A DNA stretch of 64,000 nt from Escherichia phage ManiMatter_Bas94, in the sequence record PQ850617.1; one strand, written 5' to 3'. Position numbers and translations under genes: made by a program. The notes beneath the pieces are model-generated. The model was not told where the DNA came from, did not search any database, and saw nothing but the letters and a program-made list of their open reading frames with translations. Positions 6,806 to 59,500 of this stretch are shown here, piece by piece. How positions within the stretch are numbered: position 1 is the stretch's first letter; every line of letters begins with the position of its first letter.

Positions 6806-6835
6806 CCCTGCCTTCGGGCGGGGTTTTTTCGTTTT
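6806..6835 (+). terminator. Rho-independent terminator after capsid/Ig unit
   Basis: CCCTGCC-TTCG-GGCGGGG hairpin followed by TTTTTTCGTTTT. Confidence 0.7.
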
Positions 6836-6857
6836 AAGACCTATACAAGCCAGCGTG

Positions 6858-6866
6858 TAATGTATA
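6858..6866 (+). promoter_or_regulatory. TAATGTATA promoter motif (phage sigma-dependent, putative)
   Basis: Exact TAATGTATA 34 nt upstream of ATG at 6900; same motif recurs at similar spacing before other genes. Confidence 0.55.
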
Positions 6867-7661: not shown

Positions 7662-10310
7662 ATGATCGTTTATAATAACCAAGCACCTGATGCAGTGAAT
7701 AACGTTGGGCAGTTTGGTGCTACTGAAGGCTCTATCGGAGCTTACAAGCAAGCGGCAGAATATGCAGCTGATTCTAAGTATTGGTCACTGTTGGCAGAGG
7801 CTAAGTTTGGTACAGTTGATGACTTGATTGCTCAGGTTGAGATTCTATACAAACAAGGTGTTCTATTAAGAGAAGATATTGAAGACTTAAAACAAGACTT
7901 CATTGCACAAGATGCTCGTTTGATGAACCTCATTGCTCAAACTAACGCAGCTGTAGCTGATGCAAATAATGCAGTTGCTCTGATTAATCAGAAACTTGTA
8001 GAAGTTCAGAATCAACTCGACGTTCTGTTGGGAATGTCTGTTGACGTAACTACACTTCCTCCGGGAACTCCGGCTACTGGCTCTTTTAATCCGAACACTG
8101 GTGTAATCTCTCTGGGTATCCCAGAAGGTGATCCCGGAAAGGATGGTTCTGTTACTGACCTATCTGCTGCTCCTACCGGTACACCGGAGCTGGGGGACAT
8201 CGGTTTCTATGTTGACAAAGATGATAACATTGTTCACAAAACAACTCTCGAAGATATTGCAAACCTGATCCCATCTGTTCGTTCTGTTTCAGTTAACGAT
8301 GGCCCTGCGCTTGACGGAGAAGTTGCTCTAACGCTTAACAAAGAGACGGTAGGTTTAGGGAATGTTCTGAACGTGGCTCAGTACAGCCGCCAAGAGATTA
8401 ATGATAAGTTTGACAAAACAACTAAAACCTACCAATCGAAAGCCGAAGCTGATGCGGATGCTCAATACCGACAGGTAGGAGAAAAGGTTTTGGTGTGGGA
8501 CTCAACGAAGTATGAATTCTATACTGTTGCAGCGAATAAAACCCTTACTCCGGTTAAAACAGAAGGTCGTATCCTAACTGTTAACTCCCGTTCTCCTGAT
8601 TCAACTGGTAACATCGATATCGTAATCCCAACAGGAAACCCATCTTTGTATTTAGGGGAGATGGTAATGTTCCCTTATGACCCAGCTAAAGCTGTCTCCT
8701 ATCCGGGCATTCTTCCTGCGGACGGTCGTTTGGTGTCAAAAGAATCTGCTTTGGATTTAGGCCCATCCCTTATCAGTGGACAACTCCCTGTTGTTTCTGA
8801 AACAGAGTGGCAAGCTGGTGCTAAGCAATATTTCTCTTGGGGTAAATTAGCCGATGGCATCACTGATGCAGATTCTACTAACTATATCAATATCCGTCTT
8901 CCTGATTGGACAGGCGGTGAGGCTATTCGATCCCCTGATTCTGTAAAAGATAGTGCATATAAAGGTAATGTTCAAAGTCAGGTCCCTTATGTAGTCACTG
9001 TAAATAACCAAGCTCCTGATGAGATTACAGGTAACGTCAATATCTCCAGATCTATCTTAGGTGCTGCTGCTGCTGGTGCAAACTCTGATATAACATCTCT
9101 CGCAGGGCTTACAACAGCGCTTTCTGTCACTCAGGGTGGAACAGGTGCAAAGAATTCCAATGATGCTAAGGTAAATTTAGATTTAGACAGAATAGAGCAA
9201 GGTTCTGGAGAGACTAAGATCCTATCTCCAAATAAAGAAACCTACATGTTTGTTGATAATGACGGGTGGGGTTGTTACCGTACCACGGCTGGGTTGGTCG
9301 GTACTGTAGCTTTGTCAGTTGAGAGAGGGGGCACTGGAGCAACAGATGTTGCTAGTGCAAGAGATAATCTAGGACTTAAATCTCTTTCTACATTAGATAC
9401 TGTTCCAGTAACAAAAGGTGGGACAGGTGCTATCACTGCTGCGGAGGCTAGGTCTAATTTAGGTCTTGGTTCTGTTGCTACTCTTAGTAACGTACCAATC
9501 GCTAGTGGTGGTACAGGTGCTAGTGATGCTGCCGGTGCAAGGTTTAATTTGGGGTTGGGAAATGTTTCTACTCTGGACAACGTACCAGTTGCTAGTGGTG
9601 GTACAGGTGCTAGTGATGCTGCCGGTGCCCGAAGCAACCTCGGAGCGCTGAGTAACACTCCAGCAAACACAGGTGCAGGTAATACTGGTGCGCGAGTCCA
9701 ACATGCCACCGGAAGAGGTCTGTTTACTTTAGACATGTTTAACTGCTACTGGTATATGCAGCCAGAGGATACTAACTTCTGGGTTGCCCACGGTGTGTCA
9801 TATGCAGGGCCTAATGGCGAAGCCTCAGAGTATGGTCGTATATCTTACGCAATAAAGATTGCAGATGGAACAACAAAATATGTCCATTGTCTTACAAACA
9901 AAAACACCATCATTGATACAGGCGGATTTATCAAAGCGGCATCTCCGGTAGTTAACATTTATGCCAACGGTCGGTATGAAACGAACGATGAGTCTGAGGG
10001 GGTTAGTGTCATCCGGCAGGGTATTGGTGAATATCTGATTACCGGTTGCCTCGGTCTTAACTCTGATGCAAGATGGGGTGGGGTGGATGGGGGGTTTGAA
10101 ATCCCAACAGATCGCAACAAGCAACCTAGGATTTGGCTGGACTATGAGGTTAAAGAAGATGGTTCTATTTTAGTTAAAACCTATCACAGAACTCACCCAA
10201 CCTCTCCAGTTTTTGCTAGAAACGAGATAGAAGGTTTTTCTGATGGGGACCCTATTGATATTCCAAGTGATGCTTTTATCTCAGTTCGTGTAGAGATGCC
10301 AGCTGAGTAA
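7662..10310 (+). CDS. Tail fibre-like protein with tandem Gly-rich repeats
   Basis: 882 aa; repeated units ...VP(V/I)(A/T)(S/K)GGTGA(S/I)(D/T)AA(G/E)AR(S/F)NLGLG...; typical fibre repeat architecture. Confidence 0.6.
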   Translation: MIVYNNQAPDAVNNVGQFGATEGSIGAYKQAAEYAADSKYWSLLAEAKFGTVDDLIAQVEILYKQGVLLREDIEDLKQDFIAQDARLMNLIAQTNAAVADANNAVALINQKLVEVQNQLDVLLGMSVDVTTLPPGTPATGSFNPNTGVISLGIPEGDPGKDGSVTDLSAAPTGTPELGDIGFYVDKDDNIVHKTTLEDIANLIPSVRSVSVNDGPALDGEVALTLNKETVGLGNVLNVAQYSRQEINDKFDKTTKTYQSKAEADADAQYRQVGEKVLVWDSTKYEFYTVAANKTLTPVKTEGRILTVNSRSPDSTGNIDIVIPTGNPSLYLGEMVMFPYDPAKAVSYPGILPADGRLVSKESALDLGPSLISGQLPVVSETEWQAGAKQYFSWGKLADGITDADSTNYINIRLPDWTGGEAIRSPDSVKDSAYKGNVQSQVPYVVTVNNQAPDEITGNVNISRSILGAAAAGANSDITSLAGLTTALSVTQGGTGAKNSNDAKVNLDLDRIEQGSGETKILSPNKETYMFVDNDGWGCYRTTAGLVGTVALSVERGGTGATDVASARDNLGLKSLSTLDTVPVTKGGTGAITAAEARSNLGLGSVATLSNVPIASGGTGASDAAGARFNLGLGNVSTLDNVPVASGGTGASDAAGARSNLGALSNTPANTGAGNTGARVQHATGRGLFTLDMFNCYWYMQPEDTNFWVAHGVSYAGPNGEASEYGRISYAIKIADGTTKYVHCLTNKNTIIDTGGFIKAASPVVNIYANGRYETNDESEGVSVIRQGIGEYLITGCLGLNSDARWGGVDGGFEIPTDRNKQPRIWLDYEVKEDGSILVKTYHRTHPTSPVFARNEIEGFSDGDPIDIPSDAFISVRVEMPAE
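9491..9628 (+). repeat. Direct repeat (about 48 bp, period 90 bp) inside tail fibre gene
   Basis: cgtacca..gctagtggtggtacaggtgctagtgatgctgccggtgc occurs at 9491-9538 and 9581-9628, 38 bp identical. Confidence 0.6.
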
Positions 10311-22064: not shown

Positions 22065-23720
22065 ATGCAACAGACAACTTACGCTCAGGTCAGAAGTCGT
22101 GACCCGAGAAATACTTTCTATGGTGTTAATCCGGGAGCGGCTTCGGCCTCTCCTTATATGGCTAGACCTATTCAGACAGCAGATGTTTCTATGTACCGAC
22201 GTCCTTCTGTACCTCCATCTCTCGCAGGTCTTATCTCTCAGGCAGAAGAAGATCAGAATGCTATGGTGAATCCGGGATTTCAGCAACGTCTTATGGAACA
22301 ACAGAATCGAGGAACCCCAACAAGTCTTCAGGGTATTGATATTGGAGCACCAGCCCCTGTAGCAGCTAATCCTGATTTATCCACTGATCAGGGTTTACAA
22401 GATGCTGGACTTATGCCTAGCGACCCTCTTCCGGTAACGCCTCCTACTAAACCGCTAGAAGATGGCCCTATGGAGTTTACTCCTTCTCAAGTGGAACAGG
22501 CACAAGGTGTTGTTACTACTCTTGCTCAAGGTCAGGACACTGGAGACGGAATGGCTGGGGCTACTCGTATTAAAGATCAGGAACGTGTTAATAATGATAT
22601 CATGCAAATTGCTAAAGCTAAAGACCCTTCCGAAGCTTGGAATAAACTACAGAAAGAACCTTTCTATCAGAATTCCAGTTTCTATACAGGTTTGATGGGT
22701 GTAGGTCTTTCTATCATGTCAGGTAAATCTCCTATCGAAGCATTCCAAATTGGTCAGGGAATGGCTAATCAAGATGAGACTAAGAAGCAACTAGAAGCTA
22801 ACCGTGATGCTCTGATTGAACAAGGTTTCTCTCAAGACTCAATTGCAGCTGCTATTGCTAACGGAGATCCATCTCTTCTGAAGATGAAAACTATAGACCC
22901 TGCTCAAAAAGAAGCATGGTATGAGGAGCGTGAAAGACGTCAGAATGCGGAGTGGGATAGACGTCAACAGATTCAAGAGAAATCTATGCGTGAGCGTGCT
23001 GAGGAAACTCGTCGTGCTGCTGAAGAGAGGACTAACATGAACCTTGAACGTCAGAAAAAGTTGATTGACTATCGTGATAAGGTTAAGGCTGAACGTGCCG
23101 AACAAGCTGCTCAGAGTTTTAACTTCTCCCCTAAAGAGACTCGTAACGCTCAGAATACAGCTGAAGGTAAAGTTGCCACTCAGTGGGCAGAGAAAGGTGG
23201 CCTGTTTAACCAATCCAATAAAGACTTGGACTTGGCTGATAAAGCTATTAAGGACAAGGATTACCAGACGGCCCGTTCTGCTTACATGCAGGCTATCATG
23301 AACTCCGCAAGGGCTGAAATCGGTTCTACTCGTTCTCTTACTGAAGAAGACTTGGGACATTTTGCAGAAGATCCATCAATCTTCATCCGTGTAGGTAACA
23401 AGTTCGCTCTGAAGTCGGGATGGCGTCCTACTGATTCTGCTCTTGCTTATGCTCGTAAACAAGCGAACGTCGGTTACACCTCTGCTATGAAGGGTGTTGC
23501 TGATGCTAAGAAAGCTGTTATCGAAGCGTACATCGGCTCTAAGATGGATAAGAAGAGAGCTACTGCATTGGTTAACCGTGCAATCCCTTCTGGCGGTTTC
23601 TATGATCCTCTCGGTGTTTTCTCTGAGGAAGCAGAAGAGTCAGTTGGTGGTGCAGCAACCAATCCTAAACTGAATGGTGCTTTATCTGGTTCTTCAGATA
23701 CTAGCTGGTTCACTGAGTAA
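22065..23720 (+). CDS. Internal virion protein (hypothetical)
   Basis: 551-aa ORF in the internal-protein operon. Confidence 0.4.
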   Translation: MQQTTYAQVRSRDPRNTFYGVNPGAASASPYMARPIQTADVSMYRRPSVPPSLAGLISQAEEDQNAMVNPGFQQRLMEQQNRGTPTSLQGIDIGAPAPVAANPDLSTDQGLQDAGLMPSDPLPVTPPTKPLEDGPMEFTPSQVEQAQGVVTTLAQGQDTGDGMAGATRIKDQERVNNDIMQIAKAKDPSEAWNKLQKEPFYQNSSFYTGLMGVGLSIMSGKSPIEAFQIGQGMANQDETKKQLEANRDALIEQGFSQDSIAAAIANGDPSLLKMKTIDPAQKEAWYEERERRQNAEWDRRQQIQEKSMRERAEETRRAAEERTNMNLERQKKLIDYRDKVKAERAEQAAQSFNFSPKETRNAQNTAEGKVATQWAEKGGLFNQSNKDLDLADKAIKDKDYQTARSAYMQAIMNSARAEIGSTRSLTEEDLGHFAEDPSIFIRVGNKFALKSGWRPTDSALAYARKQANVGYTSAMKGVADAKKAVIEAYIGSKMDKKRATALVNRAIPSGGFYDPLGVFSEEAEESVGGAATNPKLNGALSGSSDTSWFTE

Positions 23721-23740
23721 GACCTAAGTCCTGCCTTCCA

Positions 23741-23749
23741 TAATGTATA
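23741..23749 (+). promoter_or_regulatory. TAATGTATA promoter motif
   Basis: Exact motif 38 nt upstream of ATG 23787. Confidence 0.5.
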
Positions 23750-31398: not shown

Positions 31399-32145
31399 TT
31401 AGAATGGGCTGTCGTTGTCGTCTTCGTAGGTAGAAGCAGGCTCTTTATCAATCGTAGGGATTGAAGGAGTAGCTTCTTTCTGTTCTGTTTCAGAAGCACG
31501 AGTAATTTCACGACCAGCCAGAGGTATGTTCTTAGCGTCATTAGCTTGAGTAAGCAGGTTGCGCTGGAACGGGAACATCAGTTGATAAGATGCTACGTTC
31601 TCATCGGTTTCAGCATACGGTTCGAAGAATACCAGAGGACTACGAGCTTCACCAACTGCTGCACGATATTTGGTTGGGATTGGAGAAATGGTTTTGATGG
31701 AGTTTTTAACTTCACCAGCTTTGTTAGTGTAGGAGTTAACCAGAATGTTAACAGGCTGACCTAACAGCACATCCTTAAACCAAGACAGATCACCTTTCAG
31801 TGCTTGAATGCTTGGGTCAATCATCTTGCAAAGATCAAGGATACCAGAGTTCTTAGCTCGTGGGTTTACATCATAACTCTTGAACTGGCAAGCAGGACGT
31901 GGTTCTAATGCCTTACCATCGGAATCTTTACCCGTAGCATCAACACCAATCAGCTCGAAAGCCAAATCCATACGGAAAGCTGGATTCTTAGGAGTTACTG
32001 CTTTGGTCTTCGGGTCAATCCAAGGGTCACGATTGTGAACACCCAAACCTACTACACGAACAATACGTGCTTCGTATTCACCATCAGGGATTACATCGTA
32101 GTTGGATTTACGAGAAGAAGTTGCGATAGTTGGAATCATAGACAT
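31399..32145 (-). CDS. Single-stranded DNA-binding protein (T7 gp2.5-like)
   Basis: 248 aa; acidic C-terminal tail ending ...YEDDNDSPF (terminal Phe as in gp2.5). Confidence 0.6.
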   Translation of the reverse strand: MSMIPTIATSSRKSNYDVIPDGEYEARIVRVVGLGVHNRDPWIDPKTKAVTPKNPAFRMDLAFELIGVDATGKDSDGKALEPRPACQFKSYDVNPRAKNSGILDLCKMIDPSIQALKGDLSWFKDVLLGQPVNILVNSYTNKAGEVKNSIKTISPIPTKYRAAVGEARSPLVFFEPYAETDENVASYQLMFPFQRNLLTQANDAKNIPLAGREITRASETEQKEATPSIPTIDKEPASTYEDDNDSPF

Positions 32146-32204
32146 ATTTTAATTTCCTTATTTAATTTGAAAGATTGTTGCTCTCTTTGAGCGGTTATGT
32201 ATAA

Positions 32205-32213
32205 TATACATTA
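32205..32213 (-). promoter_or_regulatory. TAATGTATA promoter motif upstream of SSB gene
   Basis: rc of tatacatta; CGTAATGTATATT closely matches the 6855 copy. Confidence 0.5.
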
Positions 32214-32276
32214 CGCTTATACCGATAAGAGTACTATATAATATAAGTGTCTTTGGTAGTAGATATAACACACTAG

Positions 32277-32285
32277 TAATGTATA
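32277..32285 (+). promoter_or_regulatory. Orphan + strand TAATGTATA motif in 420-bp intergenic region
   Basis: Exact motif on + strand with no + strand ORF downstream. Confidence 0.35.
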
Positions 32286-32384
32286 TATTGTATAGCTGAT
32301 AAAGTTATTGCAGGCTTGTATATTGGGCAATTCATAGAATCCCTTGCAAGTACCGAAGGGCAGGAGCCACCTGCGAGATAAAAA

Positions 32385-32445
32385 TAGAGAATTAAGGAAT
32401 CCTTGATTTAGGTTGTAGGGACTCCTAGGGACTTTGATTCTCTAT
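32385..32445. repeat. Inverted repeat ATAGAGAAT/ATTCTCTAT flanking direct repeats TAGGGACT
   Basis: 9-bp perfect inverted repeat separated by about 44 bp containing TAGGGACTCCTAGGGACTTT. Confidence 0.45.
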
Positions 32446-32566
32446 TTAAAAGAATAAATAATTACTATATCTAATACTAAACAGACTGAAACAAAGATAA
32501 GAAACTTCTTATAAATACTCATTACTTATCATCTAAATAGTTAACTAATCTCTGATATAAAGAAGT

Positions 32567-34045: not shown

Positions 34046-34540
34046 TTAGTGTGTATGCATCCAGTTTAACCCAATCTGACAATCAGAAGCCAGAGGACAC
34101 TCCATGTTCAAGTACTCACCAGCCTTCTTAACACAAAGCTCGGTGTACTCTTTGAGTTTCTGTACATCATTACGGTTCACTGAGAACTGGCCCTCATCGT
34201 GCATATCAATTACCTTAGCACAACGAACTCCATCTTTCTCAATCCACTTGTTAAGGAACATCATAGCATATTTCATAACAACAGCACCAGCACATTGCAG
34301 GAGTGTGTTAAGGGCTTTATGAACCATAACCTTACCAGTGGCATCCCGTCTCATTGTAATCTTACGACCATCAACGCCAATCAAATACCCTTGAGCAGCT
34401 TTCTCTGTCATACGATCAATGAGGATTGCAATACATGGGTTCTCTGCCAAGAAGCGTGCTCGCATCACTGAACCTTCGTCAGCTCCACCACCTACGATTG
34501 AACCAAGCTTAGCATCACCAGCACCATAGTTAAACGCATC
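34046..34540 (-). CDS. DNA polymerase (family A, T7 gp5-like), C-terminal exon
   Basis: Frame open from 34540: ...FNYGAGDAKLGSIVGG...VDGRKITMRR...ALNTLLQCAGA...IDMHDEGQF... (motif B remainder and motif C HDE); close to T7 gp5 C-terminus. Confidence 0.75.
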   Translation of the reverse strand, partial: DAFNYGAGDAKLGSIVGGGADEGSVMRARFLAENPCIAILIDRMTEKAAQGYLIGVDGRKITMRRDATGKVMVHKALNTLLQCAGAVVMKYAMMFLNKWIEKDGVRCAKVIDMHDEGQFSVNRNDVQKLKEYTELCVKKAGEYLNMECPLASDCQIGLNWMHTH

Positions 34541-35243
34541 TCATATATTCGACAAGAGCCGCAACACTCTCGCCCGTTCTCTTATGAACTGCTACATGTC
34601 GCCATGTAGGATAGACTATATCATCACCCTCTGTCGAGGGGTTGGGCGCTTCCACCGGCATTAGCTTCCGGTGTACTCCTTTCGGATAGTCGTTGCACCT
34701 TCAAGTATTCTATAGCTGTTTCTAATCGGCTAACATCATCTTTCAATAGCCCTAAAGCTCTGTTGCAGTTGTGACACAACAGACCGCGTATTACTCCGGA
34801 TTCATGGCAATGATCAACCACAAGTTTAATTCTGTGATGTGTTGCCATTGCAAACCCTTCGCCCTTACAGATAGCACACTTCCCATCCTGATCAGCGTAC
34901 ATCTTTTCGTAATCGCTGGCTGTGATTCCATAAATTCGTTTGAAGTAGGAATTTCTCCAGCCCCTATCTTTGCATTCATCAGAGCAATAATGTTCAGATG
35001 GTGCATTTGGTTGAAAATCTTTTGAGCAATTACGACAAGGTTTTGGATTGAACCGACCTTGAGGGTATTTACTTGCCTCAGCAGTCTGTTCTTCTTTAGT
35101 TTTAGTTACAGTTGTATATTCCATAAGCACCTCCATGTTGAGTTGCTATAGAATACTTGCTTGGCTCAGGATTGTCTACTAGAGAGTTTCCCTGAGTTCA
35201 CCCAATTTAATCGACGAGATTACTCTCGAAGTATCCATTTACG
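34541..35243 (-). mobile_element. Intervening sequence in polymerase gene (probable group I intron carrying an HNH homing endonuclease)
   Basis: About 700 nt between polymerase motif B halves (exon 1 ends ...PTRDNAKTFI-stop); contains free-standing HNH ORF with own start; exon 2 has no in-frame AUG before conserved residues. Confidence 0.55.
34624..35136 (-). CDS. HNH homing endonuclease (intron-encoded, putative)
   Basis: 170 aa; DHCHESGVIRGLLCHNCNRALG HNH motif plus Cys-rich zinc-binding segments. Confidence 0.75.
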   Translation of the reverse strand: MEVLMEYTTVTKTKEEQTAEASKYPQGRFNPKPCRNCSKDFQPNAPSEHYCSDECKDRGWRNSYFKRIYGITASDYEKMYADQDGKCAICKGEGFAMATHHRIKLVVDHCHESGVIRGLLCHNCNRALGLLKDDVSRLETAIEYLKVQRLSERSTPEANAGGSAQPLDRG

Positions 35244-36596
35244 TCAGATAAACGTTTTAGCGTTGTCACGAGTAGGAAGACCAGCAAGTTTCTGGTTGTG
35301 GGAGTGGATATCACCTTCAAGAAGGATATCACGATACATAATAGCAGAAGCTAAACCACGTTCTGCCAGAGCTTTCTTAGCTGGATTATTCTCTTCGATT
35401 GCTTCAGCAAGCATATCCCTACATTCTTTAATGAGGTAGTGAGCGAGCATACGAAGTTCAAGTCCAGAACCATCATACCCTAAGAATACTTCTTTACCAG
35501 CGGGTATGTAATATTTGTAAGCACCTACAGGCTTATCTTTCTTCCCCGGCTTACCTTTCTCGTAAATTACGTTAGTACCTTTTCGTATATAACAACCATC
35601 AGGAACAACGTTAGTAATAACGAAAGGACGAGAGTGATCACTGTCTGAATTATAGTCAGACTCAAACAAACTGCGACACTCATGACCAAACAAACCACGG
35701 GAGGGAATATTAACCACGATACGATGTTTGAATCGAAAAGTTGGCGTAGCGCAGCTGTTAGCTTCTGCCGAAAGTTTACCATCTTCGCGTTCCTTTGCTA
35801 TGAGTCCACTGATAAGACCTAGCCTGTGAGCCGCTACAACGCGCCTCTTAAGCAAACTTCCAACACTCCCTAGCTCGCCCCCTAACCCTTCTTCAAGAGT
35901 CTCCTCGAGGTTTGTAGGAGCTGTAGGCCACTTGTTTGAGGTAGCTAGTGCTATCTTAATCTCATCAAACGTGATAGGTCTACGTCGGTTAGGGTTTAAA
36001 CCTAAACCAAACACATAAGCCTTCATATAGTTCTTAGTCTTAAACCTAAAATGCTTCTCTAAGAACCTCCTAATATCTGCGTCAACCATCTCGGCTGTCT
36101 GCTTCTGTTTAGCATTACCTCGAATCCAAGCTGAATACCACGCTTGGTATGTTCCATACTTTCGTATATCTTTCTTGATTTCAAAAGTATTCCAAGGTTT
36201 CTTTGATACGTTAAACTCTGGAGGAAGAAAACCCTCATCCATAAGGGCTTCTTTAACTCGTGCATCTTTCGATGGGTCAAAGTCCACGTATTCAACACAG
36301 GTGAATGCTCCACCAATGTCTTCTCTCTTAAGGCCAACTCTATCACAATAGGCTTGAGGCCACTTCTGTAAAGCTCCAGACTTCTTAAATGGCTTCATAT
36401 AAGTAGAGCCATCTAATCTCATCTTAGGTAAGAGAGGGATCAGTTCTTTGTCGATATTAACAATAATCTCTTTAAGGAGGTGAACATACCACCGAGCATT
36501 TCTTCGGTTGAAACTCACTCCGTGCTTCGCTTGCTTAGAGATTATATCAGCGACAGTCATCTCTGTCAAAAATGGGAGAGCGTCCGGGTTGCTCAC
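35244..36596 (-). CDS. DNA polymerase (family A, T7 gp5-like), exon 1 (polymerase domain, N-terminal part)
   Basis: 450 aa; motif A GYDGSGLELRMLAHY; ends in motif B ...GDIHSHNQKLAGLPTRDNAKTFI, nearly identical to T7 ...GDIHTKNQIAAELPTRDNAKTFI. Confidence 0.8.
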   Translation of the reverse strand: MSNPDALPFLTEMTVADIISKQAKHGVSFNRRNARWYVHLLKEIIVNIDKELIPLLPKMRLDGSTYMKPFKKSGALQKWPQAYCDRVGLKREDIGGAFTCVEYVDFDPSKDARVKEALMDEGFLPPEFNVSKKPWNTFEIKKDIRKYGTYQAWYSAWIRGNAKQKQTAEMVDADIRRFLEKHFRFKTKNYMKAYVFGLGLNPNRRRPITFDEIKIALATSNKWPTAPTNLEETLEEGLGGELGSVGSLLKRRVVAAHRLGLISGLIAKEREDGKLSAEANSCATPTFRFKHRIVVNIPSRGLFGHECRSLFESDYNSDSDHSRPFVITNVVPDGCYIRKGTNVIYEKGKPGKKDKPVGAYKYYIPAGKEVFLGYDGSGLELRMLAHYLIKECRDMLAEAIEENNPAKKALAERGLASAIMYRDILLEGDIHSHNQKLAGLPTRDNAKTFI

Positions 36597-59421: not shown

Positions 59422-59500
59422 TGAGGATGACAGGATTTGAACCTGCATACTCCAATTACTTCTTTAACGACCGCTTAGAAGGCGGGGAAGATACATCCTC
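59422..59500 (-). tRNA. tRNA-like element, possibly atypical tRNA-Arg(UCU)
   Basis: Perfect 7-bp acceptor stem GAGGATG/CATCCTC, canonical T-arm GCAGG-TTCAAAT-CCTGT, hairpin CCGC-CUUCUAA-GCGG with anticodon-loop-like UCU; no canonical D-arm found, 23-nt extra segment. Confidence 0.45.

Follow-up and report, generated by a model that had tools for sequence, protein, structure and literature searches.

This study concerns a gap between genes at positions 32146-32566 of a 64,000-nucleotide stretch of DNA from Escherichia phage ManiMatter_Bas94 (PQ850617.1), the whole of which is called the window here, and a promoter on the plus strand of this gap behind which there is probably an unannotated gene for a structured small RNA of about 155 nt rather than mere spacer. 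The window belongs to a phiEco32-like coliphage whose closest relatives are Bas92 and LAMP. Over the 2.2 kb around the gap, the identity reaches 99.6% with Escherichia phage Bas92, 99% with phage LAMP and 94-96% with about 90 phiEco32-like podophages (Gordonclarkvirinae: Kuravirus and related genera). The genes around the gap are located without exception on the minus strand, and among the stretches lacking minus-strand open reading frames (ORFs) of at least 45 aa between 28.9 and 64 kb the gap is the longest, with 421 bp vs 300 bp for the next one, in agreement with an earlier reading of the sequence alone (hereafter the original prediction), which had singled it out as the largest gap of the early/middle block. 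That reading had also taken the gap to be non-coding. This holds for its larger part and fails at its right end, where a probable 26-aa ORF (32442-32522, minus strand) is followed by a deletion scar with the remnant of a gene (32523-32566, minus strand), and the conserved non-coding unit is therefore 32146-32447.

The motif tAATGTAtA marks the promoters of gp36, the phage-encoded sigma factor of phiEco32, of which six have been published, namely P6, P13, P26, P40, P58, and P68 (PMC4331800; PMC8948821 Table S3). Its form TAATGTATA occurs in five exact copies in the 64 kb of the window, where 0.71 are expected, and this number was reached in none of 100 shuffles. On the other hand, copies with one mismatch occur at chance frequency (18 found vs 19.4 expected), so that the near-copies at 32195 and 32286, which are not kept in relatives, carry no weight. 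The gap contains two of the exact copies, one on each strand. The minus-strand copy (32205-32213), unchanged in 21 of 21 relatives, is the -10-like element of P40, the gp36-dependent middle promoter ahead of gene 40 (31399-32145, minus strand), and is hence already known; the original prediction had recognized it as a promoter from its letters, and it had indeed been published as such (PMC4331800; PMC8948821 Table S3). The bases of P40 from -37 to -34 are AGTA, which places an A at -37. As for host sigma-70 promoters, matches in the gap are found at chance level only.

The plus-strand copy (32277-32285) is the -10-like element of a promoter that we call P_as. Ten nucleotides upstream of it lies the -35 block TTGGTAGTAGATAT (32253-32266), of which the window contains only one other exact copy (42229-42242, minus strand), again 10 nt upstream of a -10-like element, in this case AAATGTATA. 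This second arrangement, TTGGTAGTAGATAT-N10-AAATGTATA (42203-42242, minus strand), is P68, the twin of P_as within the window, and the P68 of phiEco32 itself displays the same TTGGTAGTAGATAT block at the same spacing. P68 is the promoter present in the open complex whose structure was obtained by cryo-electron microscopy (NAR 2025, PMC12276001), in which -14A, -13A, -12T, and -11G contact the N-terminal domain of gp36 while -37G and -34A contact its C-terminal domain; mutations of these contact bases abolish or compromise transcription (PMC12276001). All six are found in P_as (P68 numbering), with -37G at 32255, -34A at 32258, and -14AATG-11 in the -10-like element, and the same geometry predicts a +1 at 32292 (± 1). 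P_as thus shares with P68 the 14-nt block, the 10-nt spacing, and the contact bases. It differs from P68, which drives the protein-coding gene 68 in the sense direction, by its TAATGTATA element, by its orientation against the whole gene cluster, and by having no ORF behind it.

This orientation is also the respect in which P_as departs from the definition of a gp36-dependent promoter: the -10-like element and the bases -37G and -34A are present at the correct distance, but no middle or late gene follows in the orientation of P_as. The original prediction had called this copy an orphan, and rightly, given that the only plus-strand ORFs of at least 30 aa are antisense ones inside minus-strand genes; furthermore, no ATG occurs in the first 160 nt of the predicted plus-strand RNA. 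The published motif search took in the sense strand of intergenic regions only (PMC4331800), and a copy on the opposite strand would therefore have been missed by design. For this locus, the literature searched, which did not include Pavlova 2012 and Savalia 2008, mentions neither an antisense promoter nor a small RNA nor an origin.

Comparison of 25 distinct aligned sequences, drawn from GenBank phages of three genera, IMG/VR, and metagenomes, indicates that the -35 core TGGTAGTA is invariant (25/25) and the -10 block nearly so (24/25), while the 10-11 nt between these blocks and the spacer toward P40 vary freely. To judge from the alignment, a conserved -35 block, a free spacer, and a conserved -10 block form the pattern of a promoter in use, and the plus-strand copy appears to be part of a complete P68-type gp36 promoter. 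The spacer between the two divergent promoters (32214-32252) is AT-rich and exists as at least four unrelated alleles in relatives; those of the ES17 type have about 145 extra bp there, with a 47-aa minus-strand ORF (ES17 locus sequence 982-1125) that is frameshifted in one IMG/VR contig. The single deviating -10 block belongs to a 68-kb LAMP-like contig (ERZ1034915, around 8936-8946), in which P_as reads TAATATATA, i.e. a -11G>A change at a base contacting gp36; it may be an error of assembly or else a variant that occurs naturally and lowers promoter activity.

A separate observation is that the -35 regions of gp36 promoters sort into classes. Both late promoters of the window (6820-6866 and 23703-23749, plus strand) share TAAGACCTA at -38 to -30, TTGGTAGTAGATAT is common to P68 (42203-42242, minus strand) and to the plus-strand promoter of the gap (32253-32285), P58 (37716, minus strand) has TTAGCAG, and P40 has ATAGTAC. 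These classes might be the basis of middle vs late timing.

The RNA predicted to start at P_as would open with a hairpin, AUAGCU-GAUAA-AGUUAU (32292-32308, plus strand), two pairs of which change on both sides across relatives (UA>GC; CG>UA or AU), while a third alternates between G-C and G.U, which on the minus strand would be A.C. On the plus strand of the window this hairpin reaches -4.9 kcal/mol; the minus strand, with 0, does not fold. Its covariation score lies above those of all 500 shuffles, with two double-change pairs (7 cells), and the other 29 pairs almost never vary; being invariant, the remaining helices are uninformative as regards covariation. By eye, the P68 transcript may also start near a short stem-loop, GUACAA-UAAGAGU-UUGUAU (42172-42203, minus strand), which would parallel the 5' hairpin of the P_as RNA.

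Behind the 5' hairpin, the central domain of allele A, the one present in the window, extends over 32308-32376 (plus strand). In its minimum free energy (MFE) structure UUGCAGG (32308-32314) pairs with CCUGCGA (32370-32376), and an alternative local hairpin can be formed by GCAGG (32360-32364) with CCUGC (32370-32374). MN05, ES17, ECBP2, and metagenome contigs carry an allele B, 26 nt longer and unrelated in sequence to A. One and the same closing helix, UUGCA(C)GG with CCUGCGA, is available to both alleles, with one bulged C in B, and one compensatory change (UA>CG) is found in allele B. The MFE z-scores are -2.3 on the plus strand and -1.5 on the minus strand for allele A, and -3.0 on the plus strand for allele B. 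The RNAalifold consensus energy is -40.6 kcal/mol on the plus strand vs -28.8 kcal/mol on the minus strand, and four invariant G.U pairs plus one alternating G-C/G.U pair of the plus strand correspond to A.C on the minus strand.

This exchange of whole alleles bears on a further explanation, according to which the invariant segments are boundaries for the exchange of modules, kept alike by repeated homologous exchange rather than by a function of their own. The locus is indeed strongly mosaic, in that the spacer alleles, five alleles of the 5' hairpin, the two central domains, and the gene sets of the right flank assort independently, and the conserved strings UUGCA and ACCGRAAGGGCAGG mark the exact points at which alleles are joined. 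Such a linker would however leave unexplained both the complete gp36 promoter with its P68 -35 block at the exact spacing and the pairing that is kept across the alleles of the 5' hairpin; moreover, any functional element under strong conservation should have mosaic junctions along its borders. We consider this explanation very improbable.

The right part of the conserved unit is occupied by a long imperfect hairpin (32382-32447), a candidate for the 3' end of the plus-strand RNA and, on the other strand, for the terminator of the minus-strand operon upstream. Its outer stem has 15-16 bp on the plus strand, including one U.G and one G.U pair (-23.5 kcal/mol, z -3.2), and 11 bp on the minus strand (-18.2 kcal/mol, z -3.3). 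Behind it come UUUUUAU on the minus strand and UUUAAAAG on the plus strand. The hairpin comprises the inverted repeat described in the original prediction as perfect over 9 bp, which is present with a start at 32384, one position away from where it had been put (32384-32392 / 32437-32445), and which extends to arms of 14 nt (32382-32395 / 32434-32447) with 93% complementarity. The tandem repeats reported inside it are two copies of TAGGGACT (32416-32423 and 32426-32433, at a spacing of 10 nt), both in the apical part of the hairpin. In a subset of relatives bases are lost from both copies, at the loop and at a bulged G only; these losses being confined to unpaired positions, the copies show no iteron-like behavior.

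The same hairpin speaks for an explanation in which no functional plus-strand RNA exists and the block serves the minus strand or duplex DNA, be it as a terminator, 3' stabilizer, or processing site of the upstream operon, by regulating P40 from upstream, or by binding a protein; P_as would then be silent, a decoy, or active only by occupying RNA polymerase beside P40. Indeed, in every relative the hairpin starts at most 20 nt past the stop codon of the upstream gene and is followed by five U on the minus strand, on which it is significantly stable as well (z -3.3). Most helices are invariant, so that covariation cannot tell the strands apart, and one natural variant has a mutated -10 block. 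We nevertheless hold this explanation to be unlikely, since it must account for 90 nt of near-perfect conservation, beyond the normal needs of a terminator, for a covarying hairpin (32292-32308) that has no minus-strand fold in the commonest allele, and for a pattern of conserved blocks and free spacer that is the one of a used promoter. Furthermore, a terminated minus-strand RNA would exclude GGGCAGGAGCCACCUGCGAGAU, which is invariant and located past the minus-strand U-run, and a minus-strand terminator alone thus fails to explain why this string is conserved.

The extent of this conservation was assessed in the clade with a diverged gene 40 (SU7, EP335, 4E8, MLP3, Bas87, and others). There, nucleotide identity is 81-83% for the coding sequence of gene 40, 93-100% for the 3' part of the RNA (32358-32447), 89-95% for its 5' part and central domain, 64-69% for the inter-promoter spacer, and 33-94% for the ORFs of the right flank. 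The RNA region is therefore the best-conserved segment nearby, and its conservation lies far above that of either flank.

The unit appears restricted to this group of phages. More distant relatives, whose gene-40 protein is 68-70% identical, have a 170-bp upstream region without it. Pattern scans of metagenomes and IMG/VR recovered Kuravirus-like contigs only, and no match that would indicate a host origin was found by blastn in 5,426 E. coli genomes, nor any in 185,579 species genomes. A search of the whole window with Rfam 15 returned nothing for the RNA at gathering scores, and permissive Rfam scans of the gap gave 15-16 bits at best vs thresholds of 41-140, which is chance level. A small protein encoded in the conserved block was considered and rejected: no ORF of the block is conserved, the longest in the gap have 37 aa, the reading frames assigned to this place in 4E8, 101114UKE3, and ES17 are not kept open in the window, and the changes in a 15-codon ORF of allele B are mostly non-synonymous.

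The original prediction had put forward two explanations for the locus, a transcription-primed replication origin and an antisense or small RNA. In the first, the geneless promoter would serve to open the DNA or to provide the phage's DNA polymerase, which is of family A (T7-like), with a primer or an R-loop, and the sequence of the RNA would matter for hybrid formation only. The primary origin of T7 consists of the phi1.1A/1.1B promoters and an AT-rich region, and oriF and oriG of T4 each combine a middle promoter with an unwinding element. Our locus resembles these by a phage-specific promoter of the early/middle region without an obvious coding purpose, in a phage with a polymerase of family A; in addition, this promoter lies within the block of replication genes, beside the putative gene for a single-stranded DNA-binding protein (SSB) and with the DNA polymerase gene 2 kb away, an AT-rich spacer separates the two divergent promoters, and the positive GC skew of the plus strand across 32240-32449 would give a G-rich RNA and favor R-loops. 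It is distinct from them in that no conserved AT-rich unwinding element lies downstream and the transcript region is structured and constrained in sequence, with 40-47% GC in its first 150 nt. The AT-rich tracts noted in the original prediction do exist (20-28% GC). However, the tract at 32448-32566 is confined to LAMP-type genomes and is missing from phiEco32-type relatives, and the inter-promoter spacer is the least conserved part (64-69%). Only two short repeats are present, inside a hairpin and changing in a structure-neutral manner, and the cumulative GC skew turns at 28-29 kb, at the switch of gene orientation, and not at this locus, although the evidence from skew is weak because skew follows the direction of transcription. 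Finally, an R-loop primer does not call for an RNA that is stably folded, closed, and headed by a 5' hairpin. With neither a conserved unwinding element nor iteron behavior, and with the skew turning elsewhere, the origin gained no support, and we regard it as quite improbable.

The second explanation fared better. The complete promoter architecture, the plus-strand-specific structure, and the extreme conservation, all from comparative evidence, argue for a structured small RNA. We infer that P_as fires in vivo with the timing of middle genes, and likewise where the RNA ends and what it does. Transcription would be organized as follows. Leftward, the gene-40 mRNA starts from the known promoter P40 at about 32198. 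Rightward, the P68-type gp36 promoter would start a plus-strand RNA at 32292 ± 1, made up of the 5' stem-loop, the central domain closed by the conserved helix, and an end at the hairpin 32382-32447, for a length of about 155-160 nt. Read on the other strand, this hairpin and the five U behind it would most likely stop transcription of the minus-strand operon upstream, shortly ahead of P40. The most likely role for the RNA is that of a cis-antisense insulator, in which the RNA and the polymerase producing it would oppose read-through from the upstream operon, gene 40 being then expressed from P40 alone. An RNA of this kind always matches its own target, which would explain the wholesale swap of central domains. 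A trans-acting role of the invariant 3' half is nearly as likely. Possible, albeit doubtful, is the broader proposal of a new small RNA of Kuravirus, Suseptimavirus, and Nieuwekanaalvirus, transcribed from a seventh gp36/gp79-dependent promoter, whose invariant 3' half acts in trans on a factor of the host or of the phage (for instance as a protein sponge or an anti-defence RNA) or primes the phage's replication origin.

Several points weigh against a discrete small RNA made from P_as. As only 2-3 U follow the hairpin on the plus strand, it may terminate this RNA weakly, so that the 3' end is uncertain and could give way to run-on as a long antisense transcript. An intrinsic terminator has a G+C-rich stem, a short loop, and a U-run immediately behind; here, the minus strand offers an 11-bp AU-rich stem ahead of UUUUU and the plus strand a 15-16-bp stem ahead of UUU, and a consensus terminator scan called neither. 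Covariation is restricted to one helix of 5-6 bp, the MFE z-scores are modest for both alleles (-2.3 for A and -3.0 for B), two singleton substitutions fit minus-strand pairing better, and one metagenomic relative bears the -11G>A change in the -10 block of P_as. Part of the high conservation could be due to a recent recombinational spread of the module. As to action in trans, a short-word BLAST search for targets in the window gave 22 bits at best vs a mean of 25 for shuffled queries. A seventh gp36 promoter, moreover, is listed in none of the publications consulted, Pavlova 2012 not being among them. Among candidate targets, a 15-nt match inside the sigma-factor gene was discarded; as it has the same sense, it cannot pair.

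Among known systems, the predicted RNA is closest in layout to lambda OOP and P22 sar, short phage antisense RNAs, each transcribed from a promoter and ended by a terminator of its own within an operon of opposite direction. Like them, it would be a short RNA with a dedicated promoter, directed against the surrounding operon and ending at a hairpin, and it adjoins replication genes as OOP adjoins O and P. It differs from both by the lack of any sequence or Rfam relationship and by its predicted dependence on a phage sigma factor, and it would have about double the length of OOP; furthermore, what it overlaps in phiEco32-type genomes would be non-coding DNA and a terminator only, and no coding 3' end. 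The hairpin itself recalls bidirectional intrinsic terminators, a single hairpin between an A-run and a T-run, placed between converging transcription units, from which it is distinguished by an AU-rich stem, a structured interior of 34-44 nt, and a plus-strand U-run of 2-3 nt.

phiEco32 is the reference system for phage-encoded sigma factors, and a seventh promoter, if true, would add a non-coding player to its map of six. P_as would then offer studies of gp36 and gp79 a natural second template, pointing against a whole gene cluster, and would raise the questions of how gene 40 is insulated from the upstream operon and whether the RNA takes part in replication or in host takeover. The locus also illustrates what strand-restricted promoter searches can miss.

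On the left side of the unit, gene 40 is the ortholog of phi32_40. A few GenBank records name its product a single-stranded DNA-binding protein, and its C-terminus, ...DDNDSPF, recalls the acidic tails of SSBs. Searches of Pfam and of PDB sequences gave no match, the PHROG family has no known function, and a single-sequence AlphaFold2 model was unusable (predicted local distance difference test score, pLDDT, of 36). The designation as SSB, which stems from the GenBank annotation and the acidic tail, is plausible; of the original prediction's promoter for the SSB gene, the promoter stands, as P40 of gene 40, while the name of the gene has no support at the sequence level. From the published geometry (AATGTA centered at -11.5), the +1 of P40 at about 32198 leaves a 5' untranslated region (UTR) at 32146-32198 (minus strand), which contains a GCUC-AAAGA-GAGC hairpin (fold of -5.2 kcal/mol) and a Shine-Dalgarno sequence AAGGAA at 32154-32159. 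A match of this UTR to the DUF2815 RNA motif (RF03084), in which a hairpin and a Shine-Dalgarno region precede an SSB gene of the DUF2815 family, was dismissed: it reaches 15.2 bits vs a threshold of 41.2 and covers only the Shine-Dalgarno sequence and the ATG, the hairpin of the model is deleted, and gene 40 is not a Pfam DUF2815 protein.

On the right side, the probable ORF at 32442-32522 (minus strand) encodes the hydrophobic 26-aa sequence MSIYKKFLIFVSVCLVLDIVIIYSFK. Its three alleles differ by synonymous or I/V changes only, without any frameshift, and it is found only in LAMP-type genomes and two metagenomic contigs, its start overlapping the stop of the adjacent gene remnant (TAATG). 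It also contains an inverted near-copy of the -35 block (TTAGTATTAGATAT, 32467-32480). The deletion scar (32523-32566, minus strand) retains the 3' end (LVNYLDDK*) of a small membrane-protein gene similar to phi32_41, which is intact in phiEco32. Over its full length, the segment 32467-32566 is common to LAMP, Bas92, and Bas93 only.

Two further features of the window lie outside the gap. Rfam calls a tRNA at 59422-59500 (minus strand) with 33.4 bits vs a gathering score of 29, while ARAGORN finds no tRNA in the whole window. The DNA polymerase gene (34046-36596, minus strand) is split into ORFs at 35244-36596 and 34046-34468, and a 170-aa ORF with an HNH-like Cys/His-rich motif is located between the two halves (34624-35136); given that the polymerase coding sequence of Bas92 is uninterrupted (1845 nt), the window seems to have recently acquired about 0.7 kb here, possibly a homing endonuclease.

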